This document shows, in pieces, positions 2,871-63,175 of a DNA stretch of 64,000 nt (positions within the stretch are counted from its first letter, which is position 1; every line of letters begins with the position of its first letter). The stretch comes from an uncultured Clostridia bacterium (GTDB lineage: Bacteria > Bacillota > Clostridia > TANB77 > CAG-508): assembly GCA_947589015.1 (NCBI GenBank), contig CANPZF010000005.1, forward strand, positions 4,341-68,340, in the 5' to 3' direction. A model generated the notes under the pieces. It was not told the origin of the DNA. It did not search any database and was given only the letters and a program-made list of their open reading frames with translations. The translations under genes and the position numbers were made by a program.

Positions 2871-3908
2871 TTAATGTTTTGATTTTTTAGCTTTTGATTT
2901 TATATATATTATTCCTAATGCCATTATTATCAAAACTACTAATAAACAAATTGCCCATAAATTTGAACGATTAGCTCCTGTTTTTATTGATGTTATTACT
3001 TTGTCTATTATTGAACCTCCAGATTTTTTATCCTCTGCTGTATTTGTATTTCCAGCTGCACCTGAATTTTGGGTATTTGAACTTCCTGAACCTCCAGCAT
3101 TAGTTGAACCTGAATTTCCTTGATTTGTATTTCCTTGCCCTGGATTTTCTTCTCCTGAGTCGCCTTGTCCTGGGTTTCCTTCTCCTGAGTCGCCCTGTCC
3201 TGGATTTCCTTCTCCTGAATCTCCTTGTCCTGGATTTTCTTCTTCTGAGTCTCCTTGTCCTGGATTCTCTGAACTAGTTCCTCCAACACTTGTTCTTAAT
3301 ATATCATCATCTTCTATTATAACTGGTGTTACCTCATGTGAAAGTGATACGGTTTTTGTAAATTCTTCGTCTGTTGATGTATCTTTGTTTCCATCACTTC
3401 CTACTGGTTGTATCAAAAGCGTTGAATTTTCATTTTCGTCTGTTTTATTAACAAGCGATATTGTTCCTACCTTAATATTATCTATATTTACAGTATCTGT
3501 TAGTTGATTCAATTCCTTAGTTCCAACGTAATATAAATTTATTCTTTCTAAATCTCTATTAGTTTGAACATCTGTACCTTCAAACATTCTAACATCTTTA
3601 AATTCTTCTGTTCCATCATTTAAATTAGTTGACCATTCGAATTTTGCATCGTAATTACTTGCTACATCTACATTTAATCCTATTTGGAAACTTGCTATAC
3701 TTGAATCATCAGCCATTCCTAAATATACATCAACTTTAGTAGGATCTTGTGATTGTTGTTGCAAAATTACACTTGTTTTATCTCTAGTTACAAGCATTTT
3801 AGATTTATTATTACTATTATTAGTAGCTAAAACAAAGGTCATAAGAGCAGCAAGAATTATAATAAGTATTATCATAAGTATAAATTTTGTTTTTTTATTT
3901 AATTTCAT
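2871..3908 (-). CDS. Surface-anchored protein: N-terminal signal/TM, a beta-rich (possibly cohesin-like) domain, five tandem ENPGQGDSGEG repeats, and a C-terminal hydrophobic segment with a KSKAKKSKH tail. The C-terminus resembles a cell-wall sorting signal with a degenerate SIKTG motif.
   Basis: Seen in the ORF translation. The RBS GGAGGA is upstream of the ATG at 3908. There is a 33-bp tandem DNA repeat at 3127-3270. Confidence 0.6.
   Translation of the reverse strand: MKLNKKTKFILMIILIIILAALMTFVLATNNSNNKSKMLVTRDKTSVILQQQSQDPTKVDVYLGMADDSSIASFQIGLNVDVASNYDAKFEWSTNLNDGTEEFKDVRMFEGTDVQTNRDLERINLYYVGTKELNQLTDTVNIDNIKVGTISLVNKTDENENSTLLIQPVGSDGNKDTSTDEEFTKTVSLSHEVTPVIIEDDDILRTSVGGTSSENPGQGDSEEENPGQGDSGEGNPGQGDSGEGNPGQGDSGEENPGQGNTNQGNSGSTNAGGSGSSNTQNSGAAGNTNTAEDKKSGGSIIDKVITSIKTGANRSNLWAICLLVVLIIMALGIIYIKSKAKKSKH
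3127..3270. repeat. 33-bp tandem repeat, about 4.3 copies, encoding the ENPGQGDSGEG stalk.
   Basis: The unit ttcttctcctgagtcgccttgtcctgggtttcc is repeated head-to-tail with few substitutions. Confidence 0.8.
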
Positions 3909-7000: not shown

Positions 7001-10000
7001 TAACTTGGCTATTTATTTTAGTTACTTTTCCTAAATCTGCATTTTCTAAAAGAAGTCTTGCTGTTTGTAATTCATCTAATAATGCTTGTTTATCTGGATG
7101 GTAATCTCTTTCTCCTGCACTTCCACCTATTTTTTCAATACCCGCATTTAACTCTGATTCTAATGCTGATATCTTATCTTCAACTTTTTTCTTAGCATCT
7201 GCTGTGCTTATATCATCAGCTAGTTCTAAATGCATTGCATCTTTAAATAATGCATTTATTCTTCCTTCTACATCATCATATTCATAGAATCCCATTTCTG
7301 CAATTGTTATATCTCTATTTCCTGTGCTTGCATTTCCTATTGAAACAACTATTCTATCTGTATAAATTGGTTGTTGTAGTTTTACAGCTGTATATTTATT
7401 TCCTTCAGCATCTTTTTTTGTAACAACTTGTGATGCATCCACTCTAACTTGTTTACCTTTATTAGCAGAACCTTCTCTACAATCATTATACCAAACTCTA
7501 GCATAACCAAAGTCACCATTCCATTGTACTTTTGCTAATGTTATATAATTCATTTCATAAGCTTTATCAAACTCTACTATTACACCTTTGTCTGGACCCA
7601 TGTAGAATCCACCGAAATCCCAGTCATCTACTTGTAAATATGAGCCAAAACTATTATCTGCTACACCTTTTGCTGAACCTACTATAACTTGTCCATCTTT
7701 AGTATCTAATGGGCTATCTTTCATATTTCTGTTATCTGCTTTGACAAAAGTTATATTTTTAATATGGGCTGATAATACACCTGCTCCATTAGATGTATTT
7801 ATTCTCTTATATGTTGGTAATTCAACTTCTTGTACAGCTAATGTACTTGCTGTAGCTGTTTGTGAAGGATCACTTATACCTAAACTGTTACATGCAAAAA
7901 CTCTTATTGAGTATTCTGTTGCTTCACTTGCTAATCCTGTAATTGTATAAGTTGTTTCTTTTATTCCTATTGTTTCATCTCTTTTTGTTACTGGATTATA
8001 TTTAACTTCTACTTGTGTTGCTCTCTTAAATTCTTCATTACTATTTGTTGGTTTATATTCTACTATATAACTTGTAGCTCTTGGGTCTGCATTCCATGAA
8101 ACTTTTATTTGTTGATATCCACCTTTTAGTGTTACTCCAGTAGGTGCATTTGGTTTGCTTGTTGGCATTGGTTTTACTGGATATTCTTCACTATATTGAC
8201 TATACCAATCTCCATTAACAGAACGTACACTTACATTATATACTGTATAATCATTATTTGGATCCTGATCTAATAAGTCTTTTATTGATTTGCCGTTAAA
8301 TTGTTCTATTTTTATTTCATGTCCATCTACATCAAATAATTCGCTTACTTTTCCCTTTCCTTTGAAGTTAGCTGTTACTAATACTTGATATCCTGTTACA
8401 TTTACTACATTGTTCCATTTTACCATAAAACTTTCTTCTGTTATAGATGCGTCTATATCAGCTTTTCTAAGTTCTGGTATACTTAATTCTGGTTCTGGGA
8501 TTTTATCTTCCATACCATTTAAAAATTCTACTTTTGATATATCTGCCAATTTGTTACTTGTTGTTCCTGTAACATTTATTATTACTCTTTTTACAGCTAT
8601 AGCATTTCCAAAGTCAACTACAATTGTTCCATCTTTTTCAATCTTGGCTGTTCCTCCAGATATTGGTTCGTAATTTATCTTTGTTGATTGTGTACTATCA
8701 TTAATTACAGTTTGTTGCTCTGCTACTTTATATATTGATTTTATTGATGCTGTTTCTTTTTCTGTTTCTCCTATTTTACATTCAATTTCTACATCTTTTC
8801 CTGTTTCATTATTATGTCCATCTACTATTATAGTTCCTTCTGTTATATTGTTATTTATATTTGAAGATGGTGCTATGCTTAATAATTGTGTTTCTGCTGT
8901 ATCTTCTTCTATATCTATTGCAATACTTATTGGGTTTGTATCTGATATATCTTCATTTTTTGCTGGTTTTAAAGTTACATGTTTATCATTGTTTTCAAGT
9001 ATATCATCTATAGTTCCTGAACTAGTTGAATCTACTGCTCCTGTTTGAGCTTTTGTTTCAACTTTAGTTGTATCTATATTTGTTAGAAATCTTGCTGATG
9101 CACCAATAAATGAATGTCCCTTATTTAATGCTGCATAAGATATATCAGCAATATCTACTACTCCATCTTTATTTAAGTCATATGTATAATCATATATATT
9201 ATGATTAGGTTCTGTATTTCTCTTTCCTTCAATATTATTTACTATATCTGTCACATCATCTAATGTAATATTTCCGTCTTTATTAACATCACCTATTCCA
9301 ATAACTCCTGTTCTTCCTTTTTTAGTTGTTTGTTCCCCTTCTGGACCTAACATTGAATTTCCATTGCTATCTACTATTCCTAATGCATCATAACCATTAG
9401 TTAAATGTAATTCAGAAGTTGTATTTCCCTTTATTTCTACATTTGCTTGGGTAAACGTCTGATATCCCTTTCCTGATATAGTTAATGTGTACATACCTGC
9501 TGGCAATTCATTAAATGTATAGAAAAGTTGTTTTTCTTTTTCTATTCCATTTGCTTTTGTTGGTGCTCCTTCGTCATATAGTCCACTTTTCTTTAAAGTA
9601 ACTGTTAGATCATTTGCTGACATATTTTTTTGAGGGAGTCTTAAATCTATACTAAGATTAAGTTTCCCCTTTAATTTTGATGTGTCAAGTTCTTGTGTTT
9701 CAGGTTCGCTTTCACCTTCACCATTGTCGTTGTCTTCATCTTTGCCATTGTTTTCACCCGCATTTACTTCAGTTGGTTGGTTGTTGTCTATTGTACTTGT
9801 CACACCTCTTACTTTTGCCTGTTCTTCTGATGCTGATTTTTTTGTTGCTTCATCTTTTTTCTCTTCTGATGTATTGTTTTCAGTTCCTAAAGTGTTTTGT
9901 TTTTCTTGATTTGTTTCTTCTTCAGGTTCTGCTTCTTTTTTTGGCTCTTCTGTTTTCTCTGAATTGTCTTTTGATGAAGCACTTTCTTCGTTAGTAATCT

Positions 10001-20422: not shown

Positions 20423-21445
20423 TTATTGTAATAAATTATTGAAATCTTTTCCCGTTATTTTAGTATAATCTGCTTTAAATCTTTTATATTCACTATTCCA
20501 TGAATCGTATTGGGTATCATTTCTATGGTCTGGTAAATTATAGTGTTCTTTTAAATATTTAGAAAAATATCTTGTATATTTTGTTGCTCCCCATACATTT
20601 AGATGTGCATAGTTATAAAAATCTTTATCAAAATCAACTTCAAAATCATCTAATGTATTAAAATTAAATACTTCATAACCATTTGCTTGTATAATATCTG
20701 TTGCAGTATTTATATATTCCATACCGTTATTTATATAACTTCTTTTAGGAACTACAAATAATACATTTAATTGGTTTGATTTTATATAATCAATTAAATC
20801 TTCTAATACTTCCTTATTTTCTTGCTTTAGCTCTATTCTTTTATTACTATCCCATTCATATGTTTCTTGTGGTTCTATTCCAACAGTTAATTTATAAAAT
20901 AGGTATCCTTTATATAAAGTTCTATTTCCAATTATATTTATACTACCAATATTTTTCCATTTGTTATGATATAATAAAAAGCTAAAGTAATAATTTATGT
21001 AGTCTTCTTTTTTTACATCTGTATATTTCAACATACCTTGAATTGCATCTATTCTATTTTTTGAATTTTTTAGAGAATCAATAACTTTTCTTTCCTGTCC
21101 ATCTTGTATATTTCCTAGATTATCACCTACCTTAGCTAGATCTATTATGTATAACTTAGGGTTTTGATATTTTTTTGACTCTTCTAACAAATATTTGACT
21201 GCTGACAAAGGCTGTGAATCAGTAGCTAACACACCTGTTGTAAACCCATACAAATTATACGCTAAAGTAGTATTGAAATGAGCATAACTGTTACTTCCAC
21301 CTATATTTATAATATCTAGTGTATTTTGGGGCTCACCATAGAAACAACCTATGGATGTTTGATCTAACCATAACACCTTAAAAACAATAATACATAAAAT
21401 GCAAAATATAATTAAAAATATTATACTTTTTATAATCTTTTTCAT
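20423..21445 (-). CDS. DltD/AlgJ-like (SGNH-type) single-pass membrane-anchored protein.
   Basis: N-terminal TM. An IGGSNSYAHFNTTLA-like motif follows the anchor (as in DltD). It sits immediately downstream of the MBOAT gene. Confidence 0.6.
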   Translation of the reverse strand: MKKIIKSIIFLIIFCILCIIVFKVLWLDQTSIGCFYGEPQNTLDIINIGGSNSYAHFNTTLAYNLYGFTTGVLATDSQPLSAVKYLLEESKKYQNPKLYIIDLAKVGDNLGNIQDGQERKVIDSLKNSKNRIDAIQGMLKYTDVKKEDYINYYFSFLLYHNKWKNIGSINIIGNRTLYKGYLFYKLTVGIEPQETYEWDSNKRIELKQENKEVLEDLIDYIKSNQLNVLFVVPKRSYINNGMEYINTATDIIQANGYEVFNFNTLDDFEVDFDKDFYNYAHLNVWGATKYTRYFSKYLKEHYNLPDHRNDTQYDSWNSEYKRFKADYTKITGKDFNNLLQ

Positions 21446-21457
21446 TCTCTCACCTCT

Positions 21458-23005
21458 TTAAAACTGTCTATATATAAAATTAGCTGGATTATATCCGGCA
21501 CCATAGCAACCAAATATTATAATCATAAATATTAATACATATAATACAGTCCATCTAAAAACAATATTTTGCTTAAATAACTTTTTTCTTACATTTCCTT
21601 TTAATGCTAGTTTTTCAACTATAAACAATATAAATATTGCCCCTGATAATACAATAAAGTCTTTTACATCTAATCCTATATTATTTAACAAATTACTCAA
21701 GTTACTTCTTCCTAGCAATGCTCCTATATTATTTAACATAAAACAACTTTTTATTGCATTGATAGCACCGCTTACACTTGGTGCTCTAAAAAATATCATT
21801 GAAAATGAAAATAATAGATATGTTCTTATTGTTTTATATAGTCTGTAACTAAAAACTTCTGTATTTATACCTAATTTATTGTTTATTCTCTTTGAAATTG
21901 GTTCTAAAACATCTTCTAAAAATATAAATAGAAACTGTAATAGCCCTGAACCAATTATATATGTATATGCCCCTCCATGCCATACTCCAATTGCAAACCA
22001 CATAATAAGCATAGAAATGTATAATGGTATTTTTTTGCCTACTTTTTTTCCAAATATTTTTTTACATTTTTTATTTAACTTTTGCATTATATCTGACTTT
22101 TGTAACGGATAAAAAATATAGTCTCTTAACCATGCACCTAATGTAATATGCCAATTTCTCCAAAATTCCGTCATTGTACTAGAAGCAAATGGTACTGTGA
22201 AGTTTTCTGGTAACCTAATACCCATAAATTCCGATATTCCCATAATAATATCTATTGAACCAGAAAAGTTTGTATATAATTGTAAAGGGAAAAATAGTAC
22301 AGCAGCTATTGTAAAAAATGCCCTATATGCATTTAAGTCAGCCCAAACTGTATCTACGAACATCCCAATTCTCTGCGAAATAACTAGTATTTTAAAAAGT
22401 CCCCATAAAATTCTAACCAATCCGCTACACATAAATTCATAACTAAATTTGTGTTCTCCGTATAGTTCTCCTTTTGTATCTTCATATCTAATGAATGGTC
22501 CTGATGATAGAATAGGGAAATATGACATAAACAAAGCACATTTAAATATATTCTTTTGTGCCTCCGTCACTCCCCTAAATATGTCTACAAGATATCCTAT
22601 CATAATTAGAGAATAGTAGCTTATACCAATTAATGAATTTCTTTGTACAAATTTAAATTGATAGTCTATATTAAATAAATTACATATATGGTTAGCTGTA
22701 GATAAAAATAGATTAGTATATTTTAAATAGACTAATTGTGTCAAAATCAAAAATATTCCTAATATTAAAAATGCTTTTGATTTTTTTGAATTTTCTTTAT
22801 ATTTATCTATTAATCTTCCACAAAAGTAAGAAGATAACAAAATAATTAATGCTTGTACAACTGTTTCTAAGTTTAAATTATCATAAAATAAAAATATAAT
22901 ACTTGATATCAGTAGTACAATCCACTGTATTTTTTTCGGAACAATAAAATATATTGCTACTGTTATTATACTAAATAAAGCAAAAACCAAAGATGTTAAT
23001 GCCAT
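21458..23005 (-). CDS. MBOAT family membrane-bound O-acyltransferase (DltB/AlgI-like).
   Basis: Polytopic. MBOAT signatures RNWHITLGAWLRDYIFYPL and VWHGGAYTYI. Confidence 0.8.
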   Translation of the reverse strand: MALTSLVFALFSIITVAIYFIVPKKIQWIVLLISSIIFLFYDNLNLETVVQALIILLSSYFCGRLIDKYKENSKKSKAFLILGIFLILTQLVYLKYTNLFLSTANHICNLFNIDYQFKFVQRNSLIGISYYSLIMIGYLVDIFRGVTEAQKNIFKCALFMSYFPILSSGPFIRYEDTKGELYGEHKFSYEFMCSGLVRILWGLFKILVISQRIGMFVDTVWADLNAYRAFFTIAAVLFFPLQLYTNFSGSIDIIMGISEFMGIRLPENFTVPFASSTMTEFWRNWHITLGAWLRDYIFYPLQKSDIMQKLNKKCKKIFGKKVGKKIPLYISMLIMWFAIGVWHGGAYTYIIGSGLLQFLFIFLEDVLEPISKRINNKLGINTEVFSYRLYKTIRTYLLFSFSMIFFRAPSVSGAINAIKSCFMLNNIGALLGRSNLSNLLNNIGLDVKDFIVLSGAIFILFIVEKLALKGNVRKKLFKQNIVFRWTVLYVLIFMIIIFGCYGAGYNPANFIYRQF

Positions 23006-23026: not shown

Positions 23027-23761
23027 TTACATAATATTTCCATTTGTTATTGCAATATTTTGTCCAGTAATACTATTAGATTTTTCTGATAGTAAAAATT
23101 CAAACATTGGAATTACATCATCTATAGTTAAGTTACTACCTGTTGGACTGTTCATAGCATTTTGTTTTACAATGAGTTCTGGTATTGTTTGTAAAAATTT
23201 TGTTTCTATCATAGTTGGTGAAATCCCATTAATTTTTATTCCTTTATTAGCATACTCATTTGCAAGTGATTTCACTAATCCTAATAGTGCATATTTTGAA
23301 GTTACATAACTTGCTAAATATTTAGGAGGAATATTTATTGTGTATGAAGTCAACATAACAATTATTTTTCCATATTTATTCTTAGTCATAATTGGTAAAA
23401 AATTATTTAAAATAATAACTAACGAACGAAGTGCTATATCTAAATCGCTTTGAAATTTATTCCATGTTAATTTAGAAAATTTTAAATTTTCAATTTTTCC
23501 TGCTGGCAAATGCACAATATGAGTTGGAATTTTGCCAGTTTTCTTAATGTTTTCTACAAAATCATAAGTAGCACTTTCATCTTTAAAATTACCTTCTATT
23601 AAAATTAATTTTTCTTCTAGTTCCTTTTTTAATTCTACTAGATTGCTTTTGTTTCCATTATAATGTGCAATAATAAAATCAAAATCTTTATTTACTTTAC
23701 TTATTAGACCTAATCCTATATCAGAAGATGCACCTGTTATTAATAATATTTTTTCACTCAT
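23027..23761 (-). CDS. Short-chain dehydrogenase/reductase (SDR).
   Basis: ITGASSDIGLGL Rossmann motif. The catalytic YxxxK is present as YVTSKYALLGLVK. Confidence 0.75.
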   Translation of the reverse strand: MSEKILLITGASSDIGLGLISKVNKDFDFIIAHYNGNKSNLVELKKELEEKLILIEGNFKDESATYDFVENIKKTGKIPTHIVHLPAGKIENLKFSKLTWNKFQSDLDIALRSLVIILNNFLPIMTKNKYGKIIVMLTSYTINIPPKYLASYVTSKYALLGLVKSLANEYANKGIKINGISPTMIETKFLQTIPELIVKQNAMNSPTGSNLTIDDVIPMFEFLLSEKSNSITGQNIAITNGNIM

Positions 23762-24278
23762 TTATAACTCCTACTTTCATTTTTCCTCTTACTACTTTTT
23801 GTTGTTTACTGTTTAAAATTTCAAATTTTATTGTAAATTGCTTAAAAGTTTCATTTATTTCTATTACTTTACCATTTATTGTTAGTGGATTGTCCGAAAG
23901 ATACACTGGTTTCTTAAACAAAATTTCCACACTGTGAATGAGGCTATATTTTCCAGGCAGGTATACTCCTGCTAAAGTTGATACAAATGATGAAGTAAGC
24001 ATCCCATAAACCACTTTCTGGTTATAGCCTTTAGATTTTGCATACTCCAAATCATTATGTAAAGGGTTAATATCTCCTGTTATTTCACAAAATGACCCTA
24101 GCATTTTATCAGTAATAGAAACTTGGAATTGTTCTTCCAATCCAATTTTTATATCTTCAAATTTATATTCTTTTAAAATATTTTTTCCATGCTGTCCGCT
24201 AGTTTTATAAGAACTTATCTGTGTGTGTGTGTGTGTGTGTACAGTATCAAGGCTTTTAGCCTTTTTGATTTTTTTCAT
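23754..24278 (-). CDS. MaoC-like/hotdog-fold dehydratase. Its 5' coding region contains a (GT)10 repeat.
   Basis: Hotdog motifs GDINPLHNDLEYAKSKGY and VVYGML. The repeat at 24221-24240 encodes the HTHTHTQ stretch of the N-terminal extension. Confidence 0.7.
   Translation of the reverse strand: MKKIKKAKSLDTVHTHTHTQISSYKTSGQHGKNILKEYKFEDIKIGLEEQFQVSITDKMLGSFCEITGDINPLHNDLEYAKSKGYNQKVVYGMLTSSFVSTLAGVYLPGKYSLIHSVEILFKKPVYLSDNPLTINGKVIEINETFKQFTIKFEILNSKQQKVVRGKMKVGVINE
24221..24240. repeat. Dinucleotide microsatellite (GT)10, equal to (AC)10 on the coding strand, inside the dehydratase gene.
   Basis: ctGTGTGTGTGTGTGTGTGTGTac. This is a conspicuous repeat in an AT-rich genome. Confidence 0.9.
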
Positions 24279-24298
24279 TTTTTCTCCACCTTATATAC

Positions 24299-24541
24299 TT
24301 AGTTCATTCTAGAGATAATAATATCTACCATTTCTCCAACATTTTTCATTGTTGTTACTTCATTCATATTAAATTTAATTCCAAATTCTTGCTCAACAGC
24401 AACAATCAAATTGATATGTTCTAAGCTGTCCCAATCTTCAATATCATTAGCTGTTGTCTCTGGTTTTACAACTATACCTTCATCATCAAATACATCTCTA
24501 AAAACATTGTTTAATCTTTCATAAATTTCTTCTTTTTCCAT
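24299..24541 (-). CDS. Acyl/peptidyl carrier protein (DltC/ACP-like).
   Basis: 80 aa. The phosphopantetheine attachment motif is DWDSLEHINL. Confidence 0.8.
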   Translation of the reverse strand: MEKEEIYERLNNVFRDVFDDEGIVVKPETTANDIEDWDSLEHINLIVAVEQEFGIKFNMNEVTTMKNVGEMVDIIISRMN

Positions 24542-26322
24542 TATTCTTTCACCTCTATTACATTATTTTTATTAGTATATACATTTGATATATCTAATTT
24601 ATATATTTTATTTCCTTGCTCGTCACAAGATATTTCTTGAAAACCTTGCAAGTCATAAAAATCAATAACCATTTTATTTTTTACCGTTGGATAATAGTAG
24701 CCATATATTGTTTTAATATTTCTTTCTTTTGCCTTTTTTACTAACATATCCATCATTGCAAATTCCATATTTCTTTTTAAAACTCTACAGCTCATTATCC
24801 ATAAATCTATATGTAATTCATCATTATTTTTTATATTTCCAATTACAACAGATATAACACCATTATCTCCAAATATATCTTCTAATTTTCCATATATTTT
24901 TATATAATTATCATCATTATAAACATCTTCAATATCTGCTAAAGAATATCTTTTTGTTGTTAAATTAAATTGATTACTTTTGTTGCTTAGTTGTGATATT
25001 CTTTCTAAGTAAATTGGTTTGAATGTTGATATTTCTGCTTTCATTTGTAATGATTTTAAATAATCTTCATAGTTATCAAATGACATCATCATTTGACTTC
25101 TTTTTGCATTGTCTTTATATAACTCGTTTTTCTTTAGATCTTCGTTCGAAAAGTTCGTAACTTCAAAATATCCATTATGGTCAATTATTCTAATATAATT
25201 TTCAGGTACATCTATTTCAGGTGTTGCAATTCCTTCAACATAGTTTTGTACTATTTTTCTTTCTGCTGGGTTATCATCTACAAATACAAAACTGTCCGCT
25301 CCTAAATTAAGTTCTTCTGCAATATCTTTAATATTTAAATTTTTAGGATTCCAATTTGCTTTTATTATAATAAAATCTTCTGGTTTTAATGTTCCAGCTG
25401 GATGGTTTAGCCCTGCTATCGCATTTTCATATTCATTTTTAGAATTTATATTTAATATTATTCCTAGACTTTTATGTTCTTTTATATAGCTTTGCATTTC
25501 AGAATAAACTTGTCCACTTGGAACTTCTGGCCCTATTTTTAGGTTTTCTACTCCATCGTCTCCAACAATTCCTCCCCATAATGTGTTGTCTAAATCTAAT
25601 ACAAATGCTTTTTTATTTTTTCCATAAATAGATTTTATAATATTTGCTAAATTAAATGATAAATATGGTATTGCTGGTACTTCCATAGCATATTTATACA
25701 TATGCCAATAAAATTGATTTGCCCATTTATCTAATCCATAACAAGAGGATATGTAGTTTATATCATTTATGAAAAAATTTTTGGTACTGTTTGCATAATC
25801 ATGAAATTTTTGATTTAGTCTTGTTATAAAGTTTATTCTTCCATGAATATCTACTGCATCTTTATTTCCTAATAAACGATAGTAAGGATATTCAAAGTTA
25901 TTTTGTATTATTGTGCAATTAAATCTTTCACTTAAGCTTTTCCATATTTTTTTGAATTTTTCATACTCACTATTTAGCATATTTTCAATGTTTTTTTCAT
26001 CATCATACATTGTAGGATGTTGCATTATATTTCTATTTGTAGTATGTATGTATATAATATCTGGATTAAATTTATCTAATTCTTCATTTCCAAATATAGC
26101 ATCTTCATAATACTGATTATATTCAGATTCATAAAAAGTAGGTTTTATTCCATAGTTTAATAAGAATATTTCTAACATATTTTTTATTTCGCTAGTTGTA
26201 GAACCACCCAGTATTGCTATATTTTTTTCTATAAAATTATCATTTTGTAATAATTGTCTTTTTATTTTCTTTTTATTCTTCATTAAATATGTTACATCAA
26301 ATGGATATTCTAATTCTTTCAT
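24541..26322 (-). CDS. FkbH-like HAD-IIIC domain protein with a C-terminal acyltransferase-like (GNAT-like) region.
   Basis: FVLDLDNTLWGGIVGDDG matches the HAD-IIIC/FkbH motif; FVFVDDNPAERKIV matches motif III. Confidence 0.7.
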   Translation of the reverse strand: MKELEYPFDVTYLMKNKKKIKRQLLQNDNFIEKNIAILGGSTTSEIKNMLEIFLLNYGIKPTFYESEYNQYYEDAIFGNEELDKFNPDIIYIHTTNRNIMQHPTMYDDEKNIENMLNSEYEKFKKIWKSLSERFNCTIIQNNFEYPYYRLLGNKDAVDIHGRINFITRLNQKFHDYANSTKNFFINDINYISSCYGLDKWANQFYWHMYKYAMEVPAIPYLSFNLANIIKSIYGKNKKAFVLDLDNTLWGGIVGDDGVENLKIGPEVPSGQVYSEMQSYIKEHKSLGIILNINSKNEYENAIAGLNHPAGTLKPEDFIIIKANWNPKNLNIKDIAEELNLGADSFVFVDDNPAERKIVQNYVEGIATPEIDVPENYIRIIDHNGYFEVTNFSNEDLKKNELYKDNAKRSQMMMSFDNYEDYLKSLQMKAEISTFKPIYLERISQLSNKSNQFNLTTKRYSLADIEDVYNDDNYIKIYGKLEDIFGDNGVISVVIGNIKNNDELHIDLWIMSCRVLKRNMEFAMMDMLVKKAKERNIKTIYGYYYPTVKNKMVIDFYDLQGFQEISCDEQGNKIYKLDISNVYTNKNNVIEVKE

Positions 26323-26467
26323 CTAATACTCCTTTTTTATTCATTTAAATTATTTTATAATATATTTATATCATCTTTTAATGCTTTGTATACTAAAAAG
26401 AATATGCATTTCTTTAATTGCCTCTTAGGCACCCGCTACACTGACTAATTATAAGTCATTGTTCTTT

Positions 26468-32137: not shown

Positions 32138-33202
32138 TTACATGCTTAGTATTTTATTTATTTTTCTTAATAACTTCTTTATTTGTTGTTTCATTAAATA
32201 CGGTATTTTTATTTTTATTGTGCTATATATAACAATAGCATTATATTGTTTCTCTACAAATAATCTGTTCAGCCTATTCAATTTAAACTTTTCAATTTGT
32301 ACCTCTTTCTTTATCTGCTCTCTTGCATATTTTATTATTTCAATTTTTTCTTGTTTCTGCATTCCACTTACAAATACACTATTTAAAACTGTAACCATTT
32401 CATTTACTATTCTTTTACTAATTAAATCCCTATTTTCTTTTGTATCAACATTCCATACTTTTATTATATTATACAATTTACTATACACTTCATAAGTGTC
32501 TTTTATATTACTTTTTATCTTTTTTATATTTGTTGTAGTTGTTATGCTATCTTCTGTTTTTCTATAATGATAAAAATAATTTTTTGTAAATACTATACTG
32601 TTTATGTTATTGTATATTTCTAAATTTGTTAATAAGTCGTCTCCCATTTTTATATTGTTATTTTGTACTTTTACATTTTTTATAACTTCTTTTTTTATAA
32701 GTTGTCCACATATAGCATTACAACTATAACTATTTAAAATTACTGGATATAAATATTTTTCAAATTGTTCTCTAGATATATATTTTTCTTCTTTGTAAGG
32801 TCCCTCTATTTCCGTTTTTATTCCCTCTTCAACTTGTTCTCTTATCATATTAAATCTTACTACGTCTGCATTGTACATTTCTGAAATTTGCAAGTTTTTT
32901 TGAATAGTTTCTAAATCTAACCAATCATCTGAATCAACAAATATTACATATTTTCCTGTTGATTTTTGTATACCTTCTAACCTGCTATATATGGGACCTT
33001 TATTTTCTCTATCTATTACTATAATCCTATTATCATTGTGTTGATATTTTTTTAATATATTTATCGAATTATCACTTGAACCATCATTTATCACTATTAT
33101 TTCTAAATTGTTATATGTTTGATTTATAATACTGTCTAAGCATTTTCCAAGATACTTCTCGGTATTATATACTGGTATTACTACACTTACTTTCTCGTTC
33201 AT
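32138..33202 (-). CDS. Family-2 glycosyltransferase.
   Basis: VSVVIPVYNTEKYL ... DGSSD ... FVDSDD (DXD). The start is placed at MNEKV, behind RBS GGGTGA. Confidence 0.8.
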   Translation of the reverse strand: MNEKVSVVIPVYNTEKYLGKCLDSIINQTYNNLEIIVINDGSSDNSINILKKYQHNDNRIIVIDRENKGPIYSRLEGIQKSTGKYVIFVDSDDWLDLETIQKNLQISEMYNADVVRFNMIREQVEEGIKTEIEGPYKEEKYISREQFEKYLYPVILNSYSCNAICGQLIKKEVIKNVKVQNNNIKMGDDLLTNLEIYNNINSIVFTKNYFYHYRKTEDSITTTTNIKKIKSNIKDTYEVYSKLYNIIKVWNVDTKENRDLISKRIVNEMVTVLNSVFVSGMQKQEKIEIIKYAREQIKKEVQIEKFKLNRLNRLFVEKQYNAIVIYSTIKIKIPYLMKQQIKKLLRKINKILSM

Positions 33203-38225: not shown

Positions 38226-38852
38226 TTATATAATAATCTTTTCTTTTTTATTTTCTTGTTTTCCTTCTACTATGCCTTCATGTTTGAATACATTTTTTAT
38301 CGTTTTAAAAAATATCTTTACATCTAATAAAAATGACATTTTCTCTATATATTGACCATCATACTTAGCTTTTTCTATTATAGAAAGCTCATCTCTACCA
38401 TTTATTTGTGCCAATCCAGTCAATCCCGGTCTAACATTATTTGCACCGTATTTTTCTCTTTCCTGTATTAAATCTTTTTGATTCCATAATGCTGGTCTTG
38501 GTCCTATAATAGACATATCGCCTTTTAGAATATTTATTAATTGTGGTAATTCATCTATGCTAGTTTTCCTCATGAAATTGCCAAATTTCGTTATATAATT
38601 TTGTGCTCCTTGTAACATATGCGTAGGTATGTCTTTAGGTGTATCTTCTTTCATTGTTCTGAATTTATATATTGTAAAAATTTTCTTGTTTTTCCCTATT
38701 CTTTTTTGCTTAAAAAAAACTGATCCATTTGACTCACATTTTATTATGATTGCAAATATGAAAAAAAAAGGAATTAATATTAATAGAATAATAAAAGATA
38801 AAATAACATCTATTAATCTTTTAAACATAAAATATGCTTTTTTATTTTTCAA
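38226..38852 (-). CDS. Initiating undecaprenyl-phosphate sugar phosphotransferase (bacterial sugar transferase, small WbaP/CpsE-type).
   Basis: One TM, then KRIGKNKKIFTIYKFRTM ... IGPRP ... PGLTGLAQI. Confidence 0.85.
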   Translation of the reverse strand: MKNKKAYFMFKRLIDVILSFIILLILIPFFFIFAIIIKCESNGSVFFKQKRIGKNKKIFTIYKFRTMKEDTPKDIPTHMLQGAQNYITKFGNFMRKTSIDELPQLINILKGDMSIIGPRPALWNQKDLIQEREKYGANNVRPGLTGLAQINGRDELSIIEKAKYDGQYIEKMSFLLDVKIFFKTIKNVFKHEGIVEGKQENKKEKIII

Positions 38853-44375: not shown

Positions 44376-44648
44376 TTGTTATGTCACCTCTCTTAATTTT
44401 ACACTTTTATATTATAGTATTTTTTGACTTTATTGTCAATTTTTTTCATTAAAGATTATAACCCAAAAAAGGTTACAATGTTTATAAATTCTTAATGTTA
44501 CAGGATAATGGCTACAAATTTAGCTATTATCCTGTAACTTCTTAATTCTAAACTTTTACAATTTTTTTGATTTTTTTTTTATTTATTGTTACAATAAGTA
44601 TAGATTATTTTTAACTAATCAAAATATAATATTAAGGAGGAATTATAT

Positions 44649-45368
44649 ATGCCAACACCACATAATGAAGCTCAAGTAGATGATATTGCAAAAACTGTTA
44701 TAATGCCCGGTGATCCACTTCGTGCTAAATATATAGCCGAAAATTTTTTGAAAGATTATAAATTAGTAAATCAAATAAGAGGAATGTATGCATATACTGG
44801 ATTTTACAATGGTAAAAAAATAACAATAATGGCTCATGGAATGGGTATTCCTAGTATAGGAATTTATTCTTATGAATTATATAAATTCTATAATGTCGAT
44901 AATATTATTAGAATAGGTTCTTGTGGAGCATATATACCAGATTTAAAATTATTTGATATTGTTTTATCTGAATGTGTTTTTTCTGAAAGTAACTATGCTC
45001 TTACATTTAATAATGATAATTGTCATTTAGTTTATGCTAATAATGAATTGAATTCTATTATTAAGGAAACTTCAAAAAAAATTAACATTCCAATTCATAT
45101 AGGCAATACTGTGTGTATAGATTGTTTTGATCCATATGCACCTAATTTTGATAAGTTTATTGAAAGACTACCTAAAGATTTAAATCCTATCTCTGGCGAA
45201 ATGGAAGCCTTTTCTTTATTTTATAATGCTAAATATTTTAATAAAAAAGCTAGTTGCTTAATGACTGTTGTAGATTCAAAATATATAAAAGATATTGCTA
45301 CTTCTGAGCAAAGAGAAACAGGATTAAATAATATGATTAAATTGGCTTTAGAAAGTGCATGTAATTAA
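44649..45368 (+). CDS. deoD: Purine nucleoside phosphorylase (DeoD/PNP-UDP family).
   Basis: MPTPHNEAQ ... TVIMPGDPLRAKYIAE ... SGEMEA. RBS AAGGAGGA. Confidence 0.8.
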   Translation: MPTPHNEAQVDDIAKTVIMPGDPLRAKYIAENFLKDYKLVNQIRGMYAYTGFYNGKKITIMAHGMGIPSIGIYSYELYKFYNVDNIIRIGSCGAYIPDLKLFDIVLSECVFSESNYALTFNNDNCHLVYANNELNSIIKETSKKINIPIHIGNTVCIDCFDPYAPNFDKFIERLPKDLNPISGEMEAFSLFYNAKYFNKKASCLMTVVDSKYIKDIATSEQRETGLNNMIKLALESACN

Positions 45369-54429: not shown

Positions 54430-55332
54430 TTAGTTTACACTTCCTATTATTCCTGCGTCATTATTTAAAATAGCTGTTTCTATAACAATTTCTTTCCTAT
54501 TGTTAAATAACAAATTTCCTTTTAATATTTTTTGTTTTAATTTTTCCAATAAAACATCTTCAAAAAATACAAAACTTCCCCCTATTCCTATTGCTTCTGG
54601 TTCAAAAATATTAATAAGGTTAGAAATTCCTATGCTTAGATAATCTATATATTCATCTATAACTTTATTTATTTTTTCATAATTCTTATCTTCTTTTTTA
54701 TTTTTTCTTATAAGGTCTAATAATTCTTGTCCTCTTGTTGTTTCATTTAATCCTAATTGTTTTCTCAAATTATCTTTTAGAACTTTCATAGAAGCATATC
54801 TTTCAAAACATCCATTTTTCCCACATTTACAAGGTTCTCCATCTTTTTGAATAATCATATGTCCAAATTCACATCCTGGCAAATCTCCAGTATTTAATAG
54901 TTTTCCATCAATAATAACTGCTCCTCCTATGCCTGTTCCTAATGTTAAAAATAAACTTCTGCTATAAGACTTTAAAACTCCATATTTACTCTCTGCAATT
55001 GCTGCACATTTTGCATCATTTCTTATTTTTATTGGTAATTTTAATCTTTCTTCTAAATTATCAACTATATTATAGTTTTCTAAACCTAAATTAACTGATT
55101 TTTTAACAATTCTATCTGTAACTGTTCCTGGAATTGCTATTCCTATACTAGTAATTTCATATTTTTGTCTAAAATTATTAGTGTTTTGCACAATATAATT
55201 TTCGATTACATTTATAATATCTTTCTTTTCTTTGTCTAAAATCCTCTTTTCAACTTTTTCTAAAATAACTCCTTTATTATCTACTACTCCAATGGCAATG
55301 TGACTACCACCTAAATCAATTCCAATCTTCAT
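54430..55332 (-). CDS. glcK: ROK family glucokinase.
   Basis: MKIGIDLGGSHIAIGVV, and CxCGxxGCxE zinc motif CKCGKNGCFE. The start is placed at MKIGID, behind RBS AAGGA. The 32-codon extension in the ORF track is rejected. Confidence 0.8.
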   Translation of the reverse strand: MKIGIDLGGSHIAIGVVDNKGVILEKVEKRILDKEKKDIINVIENYIVQNTNNFRQKYEITSIGIAIPGTVTDRIVKKSVNLGLENYNIVDNLEERLKLPIKIRNDAKCAAIAESKYGVLKSYSRSLFLTLGTGIGGAVIIDGKLLNTGDLPGCEFGHMIIQKDGEPCKCGKNGCFERYASMKVLKDNLRKQLGLNETTRGQELLDLIRKNKKEDKNYEKINKVIDEYIDYLSIGISNLINIFEPEAIGIGGSFVFFEDVLLEKLKQKILKGNLLFNNRKEIVIETAILNNDAGIIGSVN

Positions 55333-55358
55333 ATTTCTCATCCTTTTTTCATAAACTA

Positions 55359-55496
55359 CCAAGGTTGCCGATGGTCGCCAAAGGTTGCCAAAGGGGACGT
55401 TCTTAAATGGCAACTTATAAGTTGCCATTTAAGAACGTCCCCTTTGGCAACCTTTGGCGACCCCTTGGGCAACTCCTTTGGCGACCTTAATTCAAT
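55359..55496. repeat. GC-rich composite palindrome: a 74-bp perfect palindrome (55381-55454) flanked by imperfect tandem copies of an 11-12-bp unit CCTTTGGC(A/G)ACC.
   Basis: 55381-55417 is the exact reverse complement of 55418-55454. The flanks are ccaaggttgccgatggtcgcc on the left and tggcgaccccttgggcaactcctttggcgacc on the right. GC is near 50% in a roughly 27% GC background. Confidence 0.9.
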
Positions 55497-55498
55497 CC

Positions 55499-56836
55499 TT
55501 AAACTCCATATGCTGAGAACAAGAATTGACCCATATAAACTTGAACACATGGTACCAACACAACCAATACGAAGAATATTAAAACAACACCCACTATTGC
55601 ATAAACAACTTGTGGTAAAGCTTTCATTATTTTTGTCATAATATTATCTATATCAATTTCCATATATTCTACTAATTTTTCAATCATTTCTGTCAAGTCT
55701 GTTTGCATACCTATTTTCAACATCTCTGTAGTCATTGGCGAACCAAGTTGAGCTTTTTCAAATGGCTCAATCCAAGAAGAACCTATTAAAATATTATTTA
55801 TTGAAGTTTCTATCATTGATAACATAACATAATTTTGAACTACATTTCTACTTACTTCTAAAGAGTCTTGAATTCTCATTCCATTTTTTAAGTTCAACAA
55901 TAATGCTTTCATTAATCTTGAAAAGTCTAAAGCATAAATTAATTCTCCAAATATAGGCATTGTATATTTAAAGTAATGATAATTATATTTTCCTTTTGGT
56001 GTGTGAACATAAAATACAATCACCCCTGCTATTGCCGCTATCACAATAACTGGTATATACCAACACTGGGCAAGTCGATCAACTACTCCTGCAAACCACA
56101 TTGTAATTGCTGGCAATTTTTCTTTTGTTCCTAATTCATCAAAAATTCCTTGAATTGCTGGAATTGCAACTAAAGTTCCTACGAATAACATTACTAAAAG
56201 TAATACAAACTGTACAAGATTAGGTATTAATATTGATTTTAATTTTCTATTTAAACTATCTGTATCATCTAAATATTTTACTGCCTGTTGTAAAGAATTT
56301 GTCAATGAACCTGAAAGTTCACCTACTTTTATCATATTTACATATATATATGGGAATACATTTGAATAATATTCCATTGTAGTATACATATACTCTCCTG
56401 CTTCTACTCCTGCTAATATATCTTCTAGAATTCCTCTAAATGACATATTTTCTGTACTTTGTATTATAGTATTTAAAGCATGTATATTATTAAAATTAGC
56501 CTTTTTTAATAAATAAAAGTTTTGTGTAAATACTACTATATCCCTTGGTGTTATTTTTTCAAAATATAAATTAATTTTTTCAATCGGTGTAAGACTTTTT
56601 ATTTTTTGTTGTCCTATTCTTGTTGTATTTACATTTTTCATTACATCATTAATATCAACAATATTCTTCTTTTTTGTCTTTTTATTATTAGATGAATATC
56701 TTAGTTGTATTATGTCTATTGGGATTAAGTCACTTCCCTTTAACGATTTAACTAAGTTTAATTTATTAGCTGCTTCTACTTTATTTCGAACTAATAGTCC
56801 ATTTTTCGTTACAGCTCTATACATATATGTAGGCAT
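55499..56836 (-). CDS. pilC: Type IV pilus platform protein PilC (GspF family).
   Basis: 445 aa, three TM segments and two cytoplasmic GspF domains. Confidence 0.8.
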   Translation of the reverse strand: MPTYMYRAVTKNGLLVRNKVEAANKLNLVKSLKGSDLIPIDIIQLRYSSNNKKTKKKNIVDINDVMKNVNTTRIGQQKIKSLTPIEKINLYFEKITPRDIVVFTQNFYLLKKANFNNIHALNTIIQSTENMSFRGILEDILAGVEAGEYMYTTMEYYSNVFPYIYVNMIKVGELSGSLTNSLQQAVKYLDDTDSLNRKLKSILIPNLVQFVLLLVMLFVGTLVAIPAIQGIFDELGTKEKLPAITMWFAGVVDRLAQCWYIPVIVIAAIAGVIVFYVHTPKGKYNYHYFKYTMPIFGELIYALDFSRLMKALLLNLKNGMRIQDSLEVSRNVVQNYVMLSMIETSINNILIGSSWIEPFEKAQLGSPMTTEMLKIGMQTDLTEMIEKLVEYMEIDIDNIMTKIMKALPQVVYAIVGVVLIFFVLVVLVPCVQVYMGQFLFSAYGV

Positions 56837-62452: not shown

Positions 62453-63175
62453 TTATTCACTAGTATTTGTTGTATTTTCCTTTGATGTATTTGAAGTATT
62501 AGTTGATGTTGTATTTGTCGTATTAGTTGTGTTTGTTGTATTTGTATCATCTGAATCACTTGATGAACTTGTAGCAGCTTTAGAAGCGCTTTGTGAAACA
62601 TCTACTATTTCTATATTTCTACAAGTAAAAGTAGTATATAAAGTATTTGTTGTTATACCTGGTTCCATTTTAAAATCTTCAATTTTAAAACCTAAAGATG
62701 AATCATTTTCTATATTATATATATAATTAGTTATGCCCACATAATCACCAGTAACTGTGAAATTCAAATTATACATTCCTTCTGCATTCCCATTTGCTAA
62801 ATCAATTTTAATTTCTACACCTTCTGAAGTAGCATGATTTCCTAGTTGTACCCATAGACGTTCAATTTCATATTTTTCAAATTGATTTGCTGATTGTACT
62901 TCTTCACTTGAACTAACACTTGTCATTTGTTCATAATTTTGTTTTTCACTAGTTAATTTTTTTAAATTTGTATTTATTTCATCGTTCTTTTTTGGATAAT
63001 CTATTGTTTTCAATTTAGTAGCTACATCTACTGTATCTTGTAGTTGCTTGCTCTTATCTCTAATGCCTTGAATTCCTAATATTACAAAATTACCAATTTG
63101 AACACCTTTAACTGCCGTATATGCAGTCAAAATGAAAATCAAAGTTATTAAAATTAGTATTAATAATTTTTTCAT
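62453..63175 (-). CDS. PilO-like pilus assembly membrane protein with a C-terminal T/N/S-rich tail.
   Basis: N-terminal TM, coiled segment, C-terminal TNTTNTTNTTNTTS repeats. Its position after pilMN matches pilO. Confidence 0.5.
   Translation of the reverse strand: MKKLLILILITLIFILTAYTAVKGVQIGNFVILGIQGIRDKSKQLQDTVDVATKLKTIDYPKKNDEINTNLKKLTSEKQNYEQMTSVSSSEEVQSANQFEKYEIERLWVQLGNHATSEGVEIKIDLANGNAEGMYNLNFTVTGDYVGITNYIYNIENDSSLGFKIEDFKMEPGITTNTLYTTFTCRNIEIVDVSQSASKAATSSSSDSDDTNTTNTTNTTNTTSTNTSNTSKENTTNTSE

Follow-up and report, generated by a model that had tools for sequence, protein, structure and literature searches.

A (CA)10 tract in a conserved leader module as a putative phase-variation switch of a capsule-acylation dehydratase gene in an uncultured gut Firmicute

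Phase variation by slippage in simple sequence repeats (SSRs) is textbook knowledge for a few Gram-negative pathogens and for mycoplasmas; in Helicobacter pylori, for instance, CT repeats lie in the 5' signal-peptide coding region of oipA/hopH, sabA and hopZ. To our knowledge, few cases of this kind of switching have been documented for gut Firmicutes, in which the mechanism known is DNA inversion. The nearest analogue of the case described here is found in Streptococcus pneumoniae 15B/15C, where wciZ, the gene of a capsule O-acetyltransferase, carries a (TA)n tract (van Selm et al. 2003, cited in PMC5266551). In this work we analysed a 64,000-nt stretch of contig CANPZF010000005.1 (hereafter, the window), whose source is an uncultured low-GC Firmicute of the rabbit gut, and focused on an A(CA)10 tract, which reads (TG)10.5 on the forward strand, near the 5' end of a MaoC-like dehydratase gene within a capsule (cps-type) locus. 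As judged from sequence comparisons, this tract is very probably a phase-variation (contingency) switch of a capsule-acylation dehydratase, and a copy of a conserved module.

By what is generally known of the H. pylori outer-membrane protein genes, they are alike in that the tract lies a few codons past the start, in a non-catalytic N-terminus, and obeys the same three-frame logic. They differ in the repeat unit and the phylum, and their tract is part of a functional signal peptide, with no portable box-plus-tract leader. The similarity to wciZ, as that system is summarised in the source cited above, is closer, since in both cases a dinucleotide repeat resides inside the open reading frame (ORF) of a Gram-positive capsule O-acyl gene, and the frame toggles (or, in the window, would toggle) the decoration and not the capsule itself. 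However, the wciZ unit is TA, there is no grafted leader module and the target is an acyltransferase, whereas the window carries CA and the target is a dehydratase processing acyl groups on an acyl carrier protein (ACP); wciZ is also not known to have any module in common with phages. In Campylobacter jejuni, polyG tracts are found in capsule and lipooligosaccharide genes, and in receptor-binding genes of phages (Parkhill 2000; Sorensen et al. 2021, cited in PMC10877375). Like here, hypermutable tracts thus occur in both phage and host, in glycan-modification and phage tail genes, but as far as that source describes them they are in-ORF homopolymers, with no leader module common to host and phage and no upstream ORF (uORF) or stop/start architecture. 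A study of contingency loci in T2/T4 covered only homopolymers of at least 6 bp in coliphages and found their tail-fibre genes to be SSR-depleted (bioRxiv 10.1101/2025.10.21.683753); as here, slippage-prone phage repeats are regarded as bet-hedging, although without a dinucleotide leader module. While SSR contingency is a familiar mechanism, what appears to be new is its packaging as a portable unit that can act by fusion, by coupling or as an attenuator, and the fact that gut Firmicutes and their phages have it in common. We found no description of a conserved (CA)n leader module in the open-access literature.

Repeat length, reading frame and start codon of the dehydratase gene

The initial annotation of the window, made from the sequence alone, reported a perfect (GT)10 repeat inside the dehydratase gene at positions 24215-24245. 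The repeat is indeed there and perfect, as the TG alternation on the forward strand is unbroken for 21 nt (10.5 units); its true span, however, is 24220-24240, and the wider interval includes flanks. In the coding direction it starts on the last base of codon 13 (GTA) of the ORF 23754-24278 and finishes on the middle base of codon 20 (CAG), in the context GAT ACT GTA CAC ACA CAC ACA CAC ACA CAG ATA (D-T-V-H-T-H-T-H-T-Q-I). The predicted peptide HTHTHTQ is therefore encoded as stated, by residues H14-Q20, and the codon numbers given for it (13-19) were off by one (14-20). The repeat had also been called improbable by chance in a genome of about 27% GC. With a window GC content of 26.7%, a first-order Markov model gives an expectation of ~1e-7 occurrences of (TG)10 per window, which rules out a chance origin of (CA)10, and this tract is the only non-AT dinucleotide run of at least four units in the 64 kb. 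No Rfam match was obtained near the tract at E <= 1, nor in the whole window at gathering score.

We assessed the consequences of repeat length by computed translation. With n = 7, 10, 13 or 16 the ATG preceded by a Shine-Dalgarno (SD) sequence is in frame with the full enzyme of 172-176 aa. With n = 8, 11 or 14 the product ends with ...HR*, and with n = 6, 9, 12 or 15 it ends with ...DKFL*; these OFF peptides are 17-27 aa long. In both OFF frames a TAA is reached 2-5 codons behind the tract, the two stops ending 5 and 15 nt past it. Gain or loss of one CA unit, which had been expected to truncate the enzyme, does so by this computation, leaving an ATG-initiated product of 21-23 aa.

The position of the true start codon had been named as one point on which the switch could fail. 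In the window, GGTGGAG-N5-ATG, with its ATG at 24278, is found 20 nt past the ACP stop, and equivalents of the SD (AGAGGAG, AAGGAG) are present in the other alleles. Most of the 120 best homologues are 140 aa long, and all 15 of the inspected 140-aa homologues begin with M-N-[EKQ]-Y-K-F, which aligns to codon 35 of the window gene. The N-terminal extension is confined to a small clade, and the internal ATG (MNEYKF...) is gone from every extension-bearing allele, codon 35 being TTA in the window. Past the tract, canonical in-frame starts appear only inside the hotdog domain, as TTG (codon 47) and ATG (codon 59), and the window sequence has no SD-led start between the tract and the fold. Since there is an SD-led ATG upstream, the internal ATG has been lost and no SD-led start precedes the fold, we conclude from the sequence and the structural model that the start is upstream of the repeat and the tract is therefore translated, as part of a leader predicted to be dispensable for the fold.

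The model in question was obtained with AlphaFold2. Its confidence score (predicted local distance difference test, pLDDT) is below 50 for residues 1-32 and about 90 for residues 35-174, in agreement with the annotated placement of the repeat in an N-terminal extension (leader residues 1-34) ahead of the hotdog fold. The top Foldseek matches of the model were PhaJ 1iq6 (E = 1e-10, template modelling score 0.88), an (R)-hydratase, and HadB, representing (3R)-hydroxyacyl-ACP dehydratases. The family assignment is further supported by PF01575 (39.4 bits at a cutoff of 27) and by the hydratase-2 motif with its catalytic Asp and His, [YF]-x(1,2)-[LVIG]-[STGC]-G-D-x-N-P-[LIV]-H, which reads F63-CE-I-T-G-D69-I-N71-P72-L-H74 in the window protein; F63, D69, N71, P72 and H74 are invariant among 49 homologues.

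Comparison of repeat number between isolates had been proposed as a check of the switch. For this comparison we used rabbit-gut metagenome contigs, which are consensus assemblies (L- and P-numbers are contig and protein labels, respectively); the related metagenome-assembled genomes (MAGs) from this source are labelled Clostridia or Bacilli. The lengths do differ in nearly identical DNA. Among contigs of the window lineage (coverage ~4.7x), the tract is 21 nt long in L001 and in L002, which matches the window across 6525 nt, and 19 nt long, i.e., (CA)9, in L003. Apart from the 2 nt in the tract, the (CA)9 contigs L003/L410 are set off from the window over 20.5 kb only by a single-nucleotide polymorphism (SNP) and a 1-nt indel located in a run of A/T. 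In a sister allele, which is 82% identical at the nucleotide level and has a coverage of ~12x, the tracts measure 16 nt (L006), 22 nt (L005) and 32 nt (L004), with 0 mismatches over 6.5 kb. Protein clusters mirror this length series (P0121/P0001 and P0123/P0126/P0002): P0121 is the exact protein of the window, and P0001 (MILYTHTHTQISS...), 99% identical, falls into one 90% cluster with it. With two further lineages (L007/L023 and L030), whose tracts of 28-29 nt occupy the same codon position, there are four diverged MaoC allele lineages carrying a tract of 16-32 nt at one site, and the remaining extension-bearing alleles have only CACAC-type seeds. Taken together, natural length polymorphism, the frame logic and the upstream start argue, on the level of sequence, for the phase variation that had been proposed.

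Some further differences among these contigs and proteins should be mentioned. The 1-nt indel (in AAAAATAAAAAT) and the SNP that separate the window from the (CA)9 contig correspond to window positions 32210 and 34184; the indel, near the 3' end of the GT2 gene, gives its product another C-terminus (360 vs 335 aa). Four short homologue calls (P0053, P0063, P0087 and P0088) were considered as OFF variants and could not be assigned as such.

The leader module and the putative acylation cassette in other lineages

We defined the module as an SD-ATG, a leader of 27-45 nt ending with ..AA(G/C)CCTTGnn(G/A)CTGTA, a (CA)n tract and stops in two frames soon after it. The window fits this definition with GGTGGAG-N5-ATG, a leader of 38-39 nt, the box AAAAGCCTTGATACTGTA, (CA)10 and two TAA stops; elsewhere the layout is SD-ATG ...AAGCCTTGnnnCTGTA, followed by (CA)n. 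A metagenome scan with the window flank plus tract gave no further dehydratase copies and retrieved 10 low-GC contigs, which may be of host or phage, with the same layout before other genes. These encode a DNA methyltransferase (phrog_67, 2e-57), HNH/NUMOD4-like and pilin-like proteins and small ORFs without assigned function; the methyltransferase copy is a fusion and the pilin-like copies are upstream. In an unbiased scan for (CA)10 among viral contigs with GC <= 0.31, SD-ATG-...AAGCCTTGnnnCTGTA preceded the tract in 10 of 10 cases, and the same scan of higher-GC viral contigs found the box before 0 tracts. A further scan brought 56 unique modules, including those on dozens of ~35-kb low-GC phage contigs.

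Conservation of the box is also evident at positions outside the search filter, namely A at -16 (56/56), A at -15 (55/56) and C at -13 (46/56). The leader ATG takes all three frames with respect to the box (36/6/9), and a box of this type is present before an (AG)19 tract (L014, see below), therefore its conservation is unlikely to be purely peptide-level. Chance occurrences of the box alone in high-GC contigs had no repeat behind them in 104/104 cases; in the low-GC leader context, (CA)n comes after the box, or in rare cases what is left of it after decay. Translation in Escherichia coli is stimulated by CA repeats after the start codon, according to the secondary account available to us (Martin-Farmer & Janssen 1999, cited in PMC3879156), and by analogy such stimulation may explain the choice of the unit. 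A hairpin formed by the box (AGCC-UUGA-GGCU, with AGUA...UACU variants) was considered and rejected, as the window box cannot form it and the columns do not pair consistently. A few modules look decayed or locked: L020 (P0041) reads GTGCACACACGG, and its hotdog domain is locked into a non-ATG frame, in L343 an intact box is followed by ATATATACAC, and L312 retains only (CA)3-4.

As to what follows the tract, 8 modules, the window copy included, are direct fusions. In 27 of the 56 unique modules the stop of one frame, and of one only, falls on the start codon of the following gene (TAATG/ATGA); most of the remaining ones have a frame whose stop is situated a few to 20 nt into that gene. The contig L271 bears two modules ~1 kb apart (11797 and 12794), between tail-fibre genes and an endolysin gene, and L212, L252 and L246 have similarly paired modules; each module of the L271 type stands before a ~120-aa protein that is conserved at its N-terminus (MIPQ...) and variable beyond, and for which no PHROG match was found. 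Another phage module targets a tail-collar-type protein (phrog_6465). At one phage locus with identical flanks, the tracts measure 22, 22, 22, 28, 28, 30, 34 and 36 nt. Among 64 distinct instances, the frame was productive in 24 (37.5%; p = 0.28 against one third), and the non-productive ones comprised 19 in the frame of the box TTG and 21 in the third frame, which fits a fast, roughly equilibrated three-frame switch.

These comparisons suggest a signature that could be used to find contingency genes in metagenomes, SD-ATG-N(20-40)-CCTTGNNNCTGTA-(CA)>=6, and the module itself, small and naturally occurring, could serve as a part from which heritable stochastic switches are built in Gram-positive hosts.

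The dehydratase gene belongs to a cassette, FkbH-ACP-MaoC-SDR-MBOAT-340 aa (the last being a protein of that length), situated within a Gram-positive Wzx/Wzy cps-type locus at 14.3-42.6 kb of the window. The locus further encodes LCP/CpsA, CapD-like, an initiating sugar transferase, glycosyltransferases, Wzy, pyruvyl transferase, Wzx, CpsC, CpsD and CpsB. The location in such a locus and the combination of a carrier protein with an MBOAT make capsule acylation a well-founded inference for the role of the cassette. FkbH presumably loads a glyceryl unit, as we assume from knowledge of the family; that the dehydratase and the reductase convert it to a lactyl-type unit is our guess, and a comparable route may have been suggested for polyketide loading modules. 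The ACP gene overlaps the FkbH stop. The MBOAT ends with FIYRQF, which fits the FXYXXF acyl-shuttle motif described for MBOAT acyltransferases without DltX (PMC12148441). As in the Dlt and MBOAT/SGNH systems, a carrier protein would donate the acyl group to a DltB-like MBOAT with this motif, which here forms the C-terminal end of the MBOAT itself, like in systems of the PatA type (PMC12148441). However, Dlt employs DltA and D-alanine, whereas the cassette has an FkbH loader (glycolysis-derived glyceryl) and an added dehydratase and reductase, and is placed within a cps locus; an SGNH/DltD protein cannot be recognised in its 340-aa partner. The label "DltD-like", considered for this protein, was dropped because it has no match in Pfam or NCBIfam. 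A description of an FkbH+MBOAT cassette was not found in the open-access literature. In L001, A4 replaces A5 of the window at CCTAAAAATAGGG (~25540), which splits FkbH into 262 + 345 aa; this could be either a real frameshift or a consensus error at low coverage (4.7x).

Related lineages have independent hypermutable tracts in the same cassette. In L013 (7937-7962), a box and (CA)n leader is fused to an orthologue of the 340-aa gene (54% identity to the window protein, E = 3e-56), the leader start being now out of frame. L008 (1832-1851) and L009 (1779-1804) have a (CA)n leader uORF (MKNAKTVGTV...) upstream of FkbH, followed by a 22-bp hairpin with a U-run (terminator-like, z = -6.3) and then the SD of FkbH; in one frame, the uORF stop falls in the 5' arm of the hairpin. 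This arrangement looks like a transcription attenuator controlled by repeat length. No such uORF is present in the corresponding region of the window (26323-26467). Trp-type attenuators and overlapping ATGA/TAATG stop-start pairs are classical examples of attenuation and coupling, respectively. The module of the relatives is similar to them in being a short leader ORF, in which the position of the stop relative to the terminator (L008, L009) or to the next start (phages) should decide on expression; it differs in that the stop is set by heritable repeat length and not by the supply of charged tRNA, and the window copy is a direct fusion.

Tracts of other types were found as well: (TA)8 and (TA)10 at the 5' ends of two paralogues of the 340-aa gene (L029:6731-6746 and 7793-7812), G10 within codons 11-14 of a dehydratase homologue (L027:4039-4048), (AG)19 behind a box AAGCCTT..GGCTGT, fused to an acyltransferase-3-like ORF (L014:6891-6928), and (AC)11 in the 5' part of an acyltransferase-3 gene (L010:871-892). 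Such convergence across the cassette is, as far as sequences can tell, the strongest argument for selected variability of the decoration. The same acylation pathway seems to have been made switchable in at least 7 separate ways in related lineages, a pattern that points to the acyl groups of the capsule as a principal site of conflict with phages or with host immunity.

Homopolymers of G8-G15 were also noted in genomes of ~27% GC (L033:4173-4180 and many "uncultured Bacilli" MAG loci), and these are probably additional contingency tracts.

Proposed mechanism and alternative explanations

We propose that replication slippage adds or removes CA units in the leader, so that the gene would be ON at n = 7, 10 and 13 and OFF in the other frames. 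As the cassette lies in a Wzx/Wzy cps-type locus, switching would most likely create subpopulations differing in acyl decoration of the capsule or of a cell-wall polysaccharide. Similarly to Dlt, an ACP-built acyl group would be passed across the membrane onto the surface polymer. In the OFF state the decoration would be lost, or swapped for another acyl group if unprocessed glyceryl-ACP were still transferred. Related low-GC gut Firmicutes and ~35-kb phages would use the module by placing it before diverse genes. The sequences directly show the tract with its effects on the frame, the natural polymorphism in length, the conservation of the module and the independent tracts in the cassette; we infer the rate and reversibility of slippage, the capsule phenotype, the chemistry of the cassette and the selective agent, be it phage or host immunity. 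For a tract of 10 units, we would expect a rate of roughly 1e-4 to 1e-2 per generation. Some of our results weigh against this mechanism. The 340-aa partner does not belong to a recognisable family, thus the analogy to Dlt is incomplete. Productive instances do not exceed the one third expected, which is also compatible with weak or no selection on the state. Finally, the window lineage has a lone (CA)9 contig, which at ~4.7x could in principle be a consensus error.

It is conceivable, although we put it forward only tentatively, that the module has a wider meaning, as a self-contained, horizontally portable phase-variation cassette, used and possibly exchanged by gut Firmicutes and by their temperate or virulent phages. 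Hosts would then randomise capsule decoration and phages the small hypervariable proteins beside their tail fibres, with three outputs: N-terminal fusion, stop/start coupling, and a leader ORF before a terminator. The box is kept irrespective of the ATG frame and also before (AG)19, and therefore it would act at the DNA or RNA level, e.g., on slippage behaviour, on initiation efficiency or as a recombination handle. A rather unlikely refinement of the contingency switch is polarity, in which the OFF state would uncouple the SDR and lower expression of the MBOAT and 340-aa genes, silencing the distal cassette. The last 8 nt of the MaoC gene (ATGAGTGA) are shared with the beginning of the SDR gene, an arrangement by which translational coupling or polarity on the distal genes is possible, and the overlap of a stop with the next start in phage copies of the module (27/56 unique modules) suggests frequent use via coupling; however, the SDR has its own GGAG ~7 nt before its ATG, and independent initiation could occur. 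We find it improbable that the switch has three states, with the box TTG, 9 nt before the tract and in the +1 frame, as a weak second start that would yield low-level enzyme of 164-168 aa at n = 9, 12 and 15, leaving n = 8, 11 and 14 as null. Gene callers do start P0001 and P0002 at this TTG (MILYTH...), and all out-of-ATG-frame cassette fusions (L003, L004, L030, L013), together with the remnant L020, are in the TTG frame. Nevertheless, the box TTG is without an SD in most modules, and the 19 vs 21 split of non-productive instances gives no preference, while 4/4 corresponds to p ~0.06, which is not significant; a second functional start at this TTG is thus unsupported.

Explanations that dispense with a switch fare worse. 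If the tract were a neutral microsatellite in a dispensable linker, varying in length with no adaptive role, one would understand why the productive frame is not above one third and why most homologues lack the leader, which is disordered. Yet a neutral tract would not stay long and perfect at the same site in four diverged alleles, unlike SSR types would not recur independently in the same cassette, and 56 modules would not have a 16-18-nt box and a consistent stop/start architecture, with decay products rare; we regard this explanation as very unlikely. It is most unlikely that the true start is downstream and the tract tunes expression quantitatively from a 5' untranslated region or uORF. 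Although most homologues begin at the position of codon 35 and the module is a separate uORF in relatives, the window has neither ATG/GTG/TTG nor an SD from the tract to codon 47, codon 35 is TTA there and non-ATG in all extension-bearing alleles, and a start at codon 47 or 59 would cost the domain its first strand region. Sequencing or assembly artefacts as the source of the length differences are hardly credible. The contigs of the window lineage are indeed at ~4.7x, and dinucleotide runs stutter in libraries based on the polymerase chain reaction; but the 6-, 10- and 16-nt differences of the sister allele at ~12x cannot be consensus error, and an artefact is rejected for this allele. Moreover, the same length was obtained in independent assemblies (window = L001 = L002), and the same behaviour is seen across dozens of phage contigs from many datasets. 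We also considered a promoter-spacer switch, of which (TA)n of Haemophilus influenzae hif is an example. The TTGATA within the box is -35-like, but against a -35/-10 spacer of ~17 bp the tracts alone are 15-37 nt long, and with TTGATA as the -35 the spacer would measure 21-45 nt; this mechanism was rejected because the tracts are too long.

Coordinates and other features of the window

The features of the putative switch and of the cassette are listed in Table 1.

Table 1. Window coordinates of the repeat-containing gene, its leader and the cassette genes.
Feature	Position	Strand	Basis or remark
Hypermutable tract A(CA)10 (coding strand), (TG)10.5 on the + strand	24220..24240	-	putative switch itself; sequence read
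Conserved leader box AAAAGCCTTGATACTGTA, abutting the 5' side of the tract	24240..24257	-	module comparison
Leader coding sequence, ATG to tract, encoding MKKIKKAKSLDTV	24241..24278	-	homologous leaders in sister alleles and phage modules
Shine-Dalgarno GGTGGAG, 5 nt before ATG 24278	24284..24290	-	sequence read
OFF-frame stops: TAA 24215-24217 (n = 8, 11, 14); TAA 24205-24207 (n = 6, 9, 12)	24205..24217	-	
MaoC-like (R)-specific hydratase/dehydratase, 174 aa; residues 1-34 leader, ~35-174 hotdog	23754..24278	-	PF01575
8-nt overlap ATGAGTGA of MaoC stop with SDR start	23754..23761	-	coordinates, sequence
FkbH-type loader (HAD-IIIC), first cassette gene	24541..26322	-	TIGR01686, 255 bits vs 146.65; PF21211
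Acyl carrier protein, 80 aa	24299..24541	-	PF00550; NCBIfam ACP models below cutoffs
SDR / 3-oxoacyl-ACP-reductase-like, 244 aa	23027..23761	-	PF13561, PF00106; FabG-like matches
DltB-like MBOAT, 515 aa, C-terminus FIYRQF	21458..23005	-	PF03062; TIGR04091 DltB, E = 3.9e-38, below cutoff
340-aa membrane-anchored cassette partner	20423..21445	-	N-terminal transmembrane segment; no family match

Several other repeats were observed in the window. An A9 run (38761-38769, + strand) is located close to where the ORF of the initiating sugar transferase begins (38226-38852, - strand), and a T10 run (44571-44580) is intergenic, before position 44649; both could be slippage-prone. Between the ORFs 54430-55428 and 55499-56836 there is a GC-rich, nearly perfect inverted repeat (55361-55486), unusual at 27% GC and without an Rfam match, with ~45-bp arms around TTATAA and internal GGCAACC/TTGCC repeats. 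A tandem repeat with a period of 30 nt (4.6 copies, 88% match) occupies positions 3109-3270 in the ORF 2871-3908, and a 9/24/33-nt periodic repeat is present at 62462-62547.

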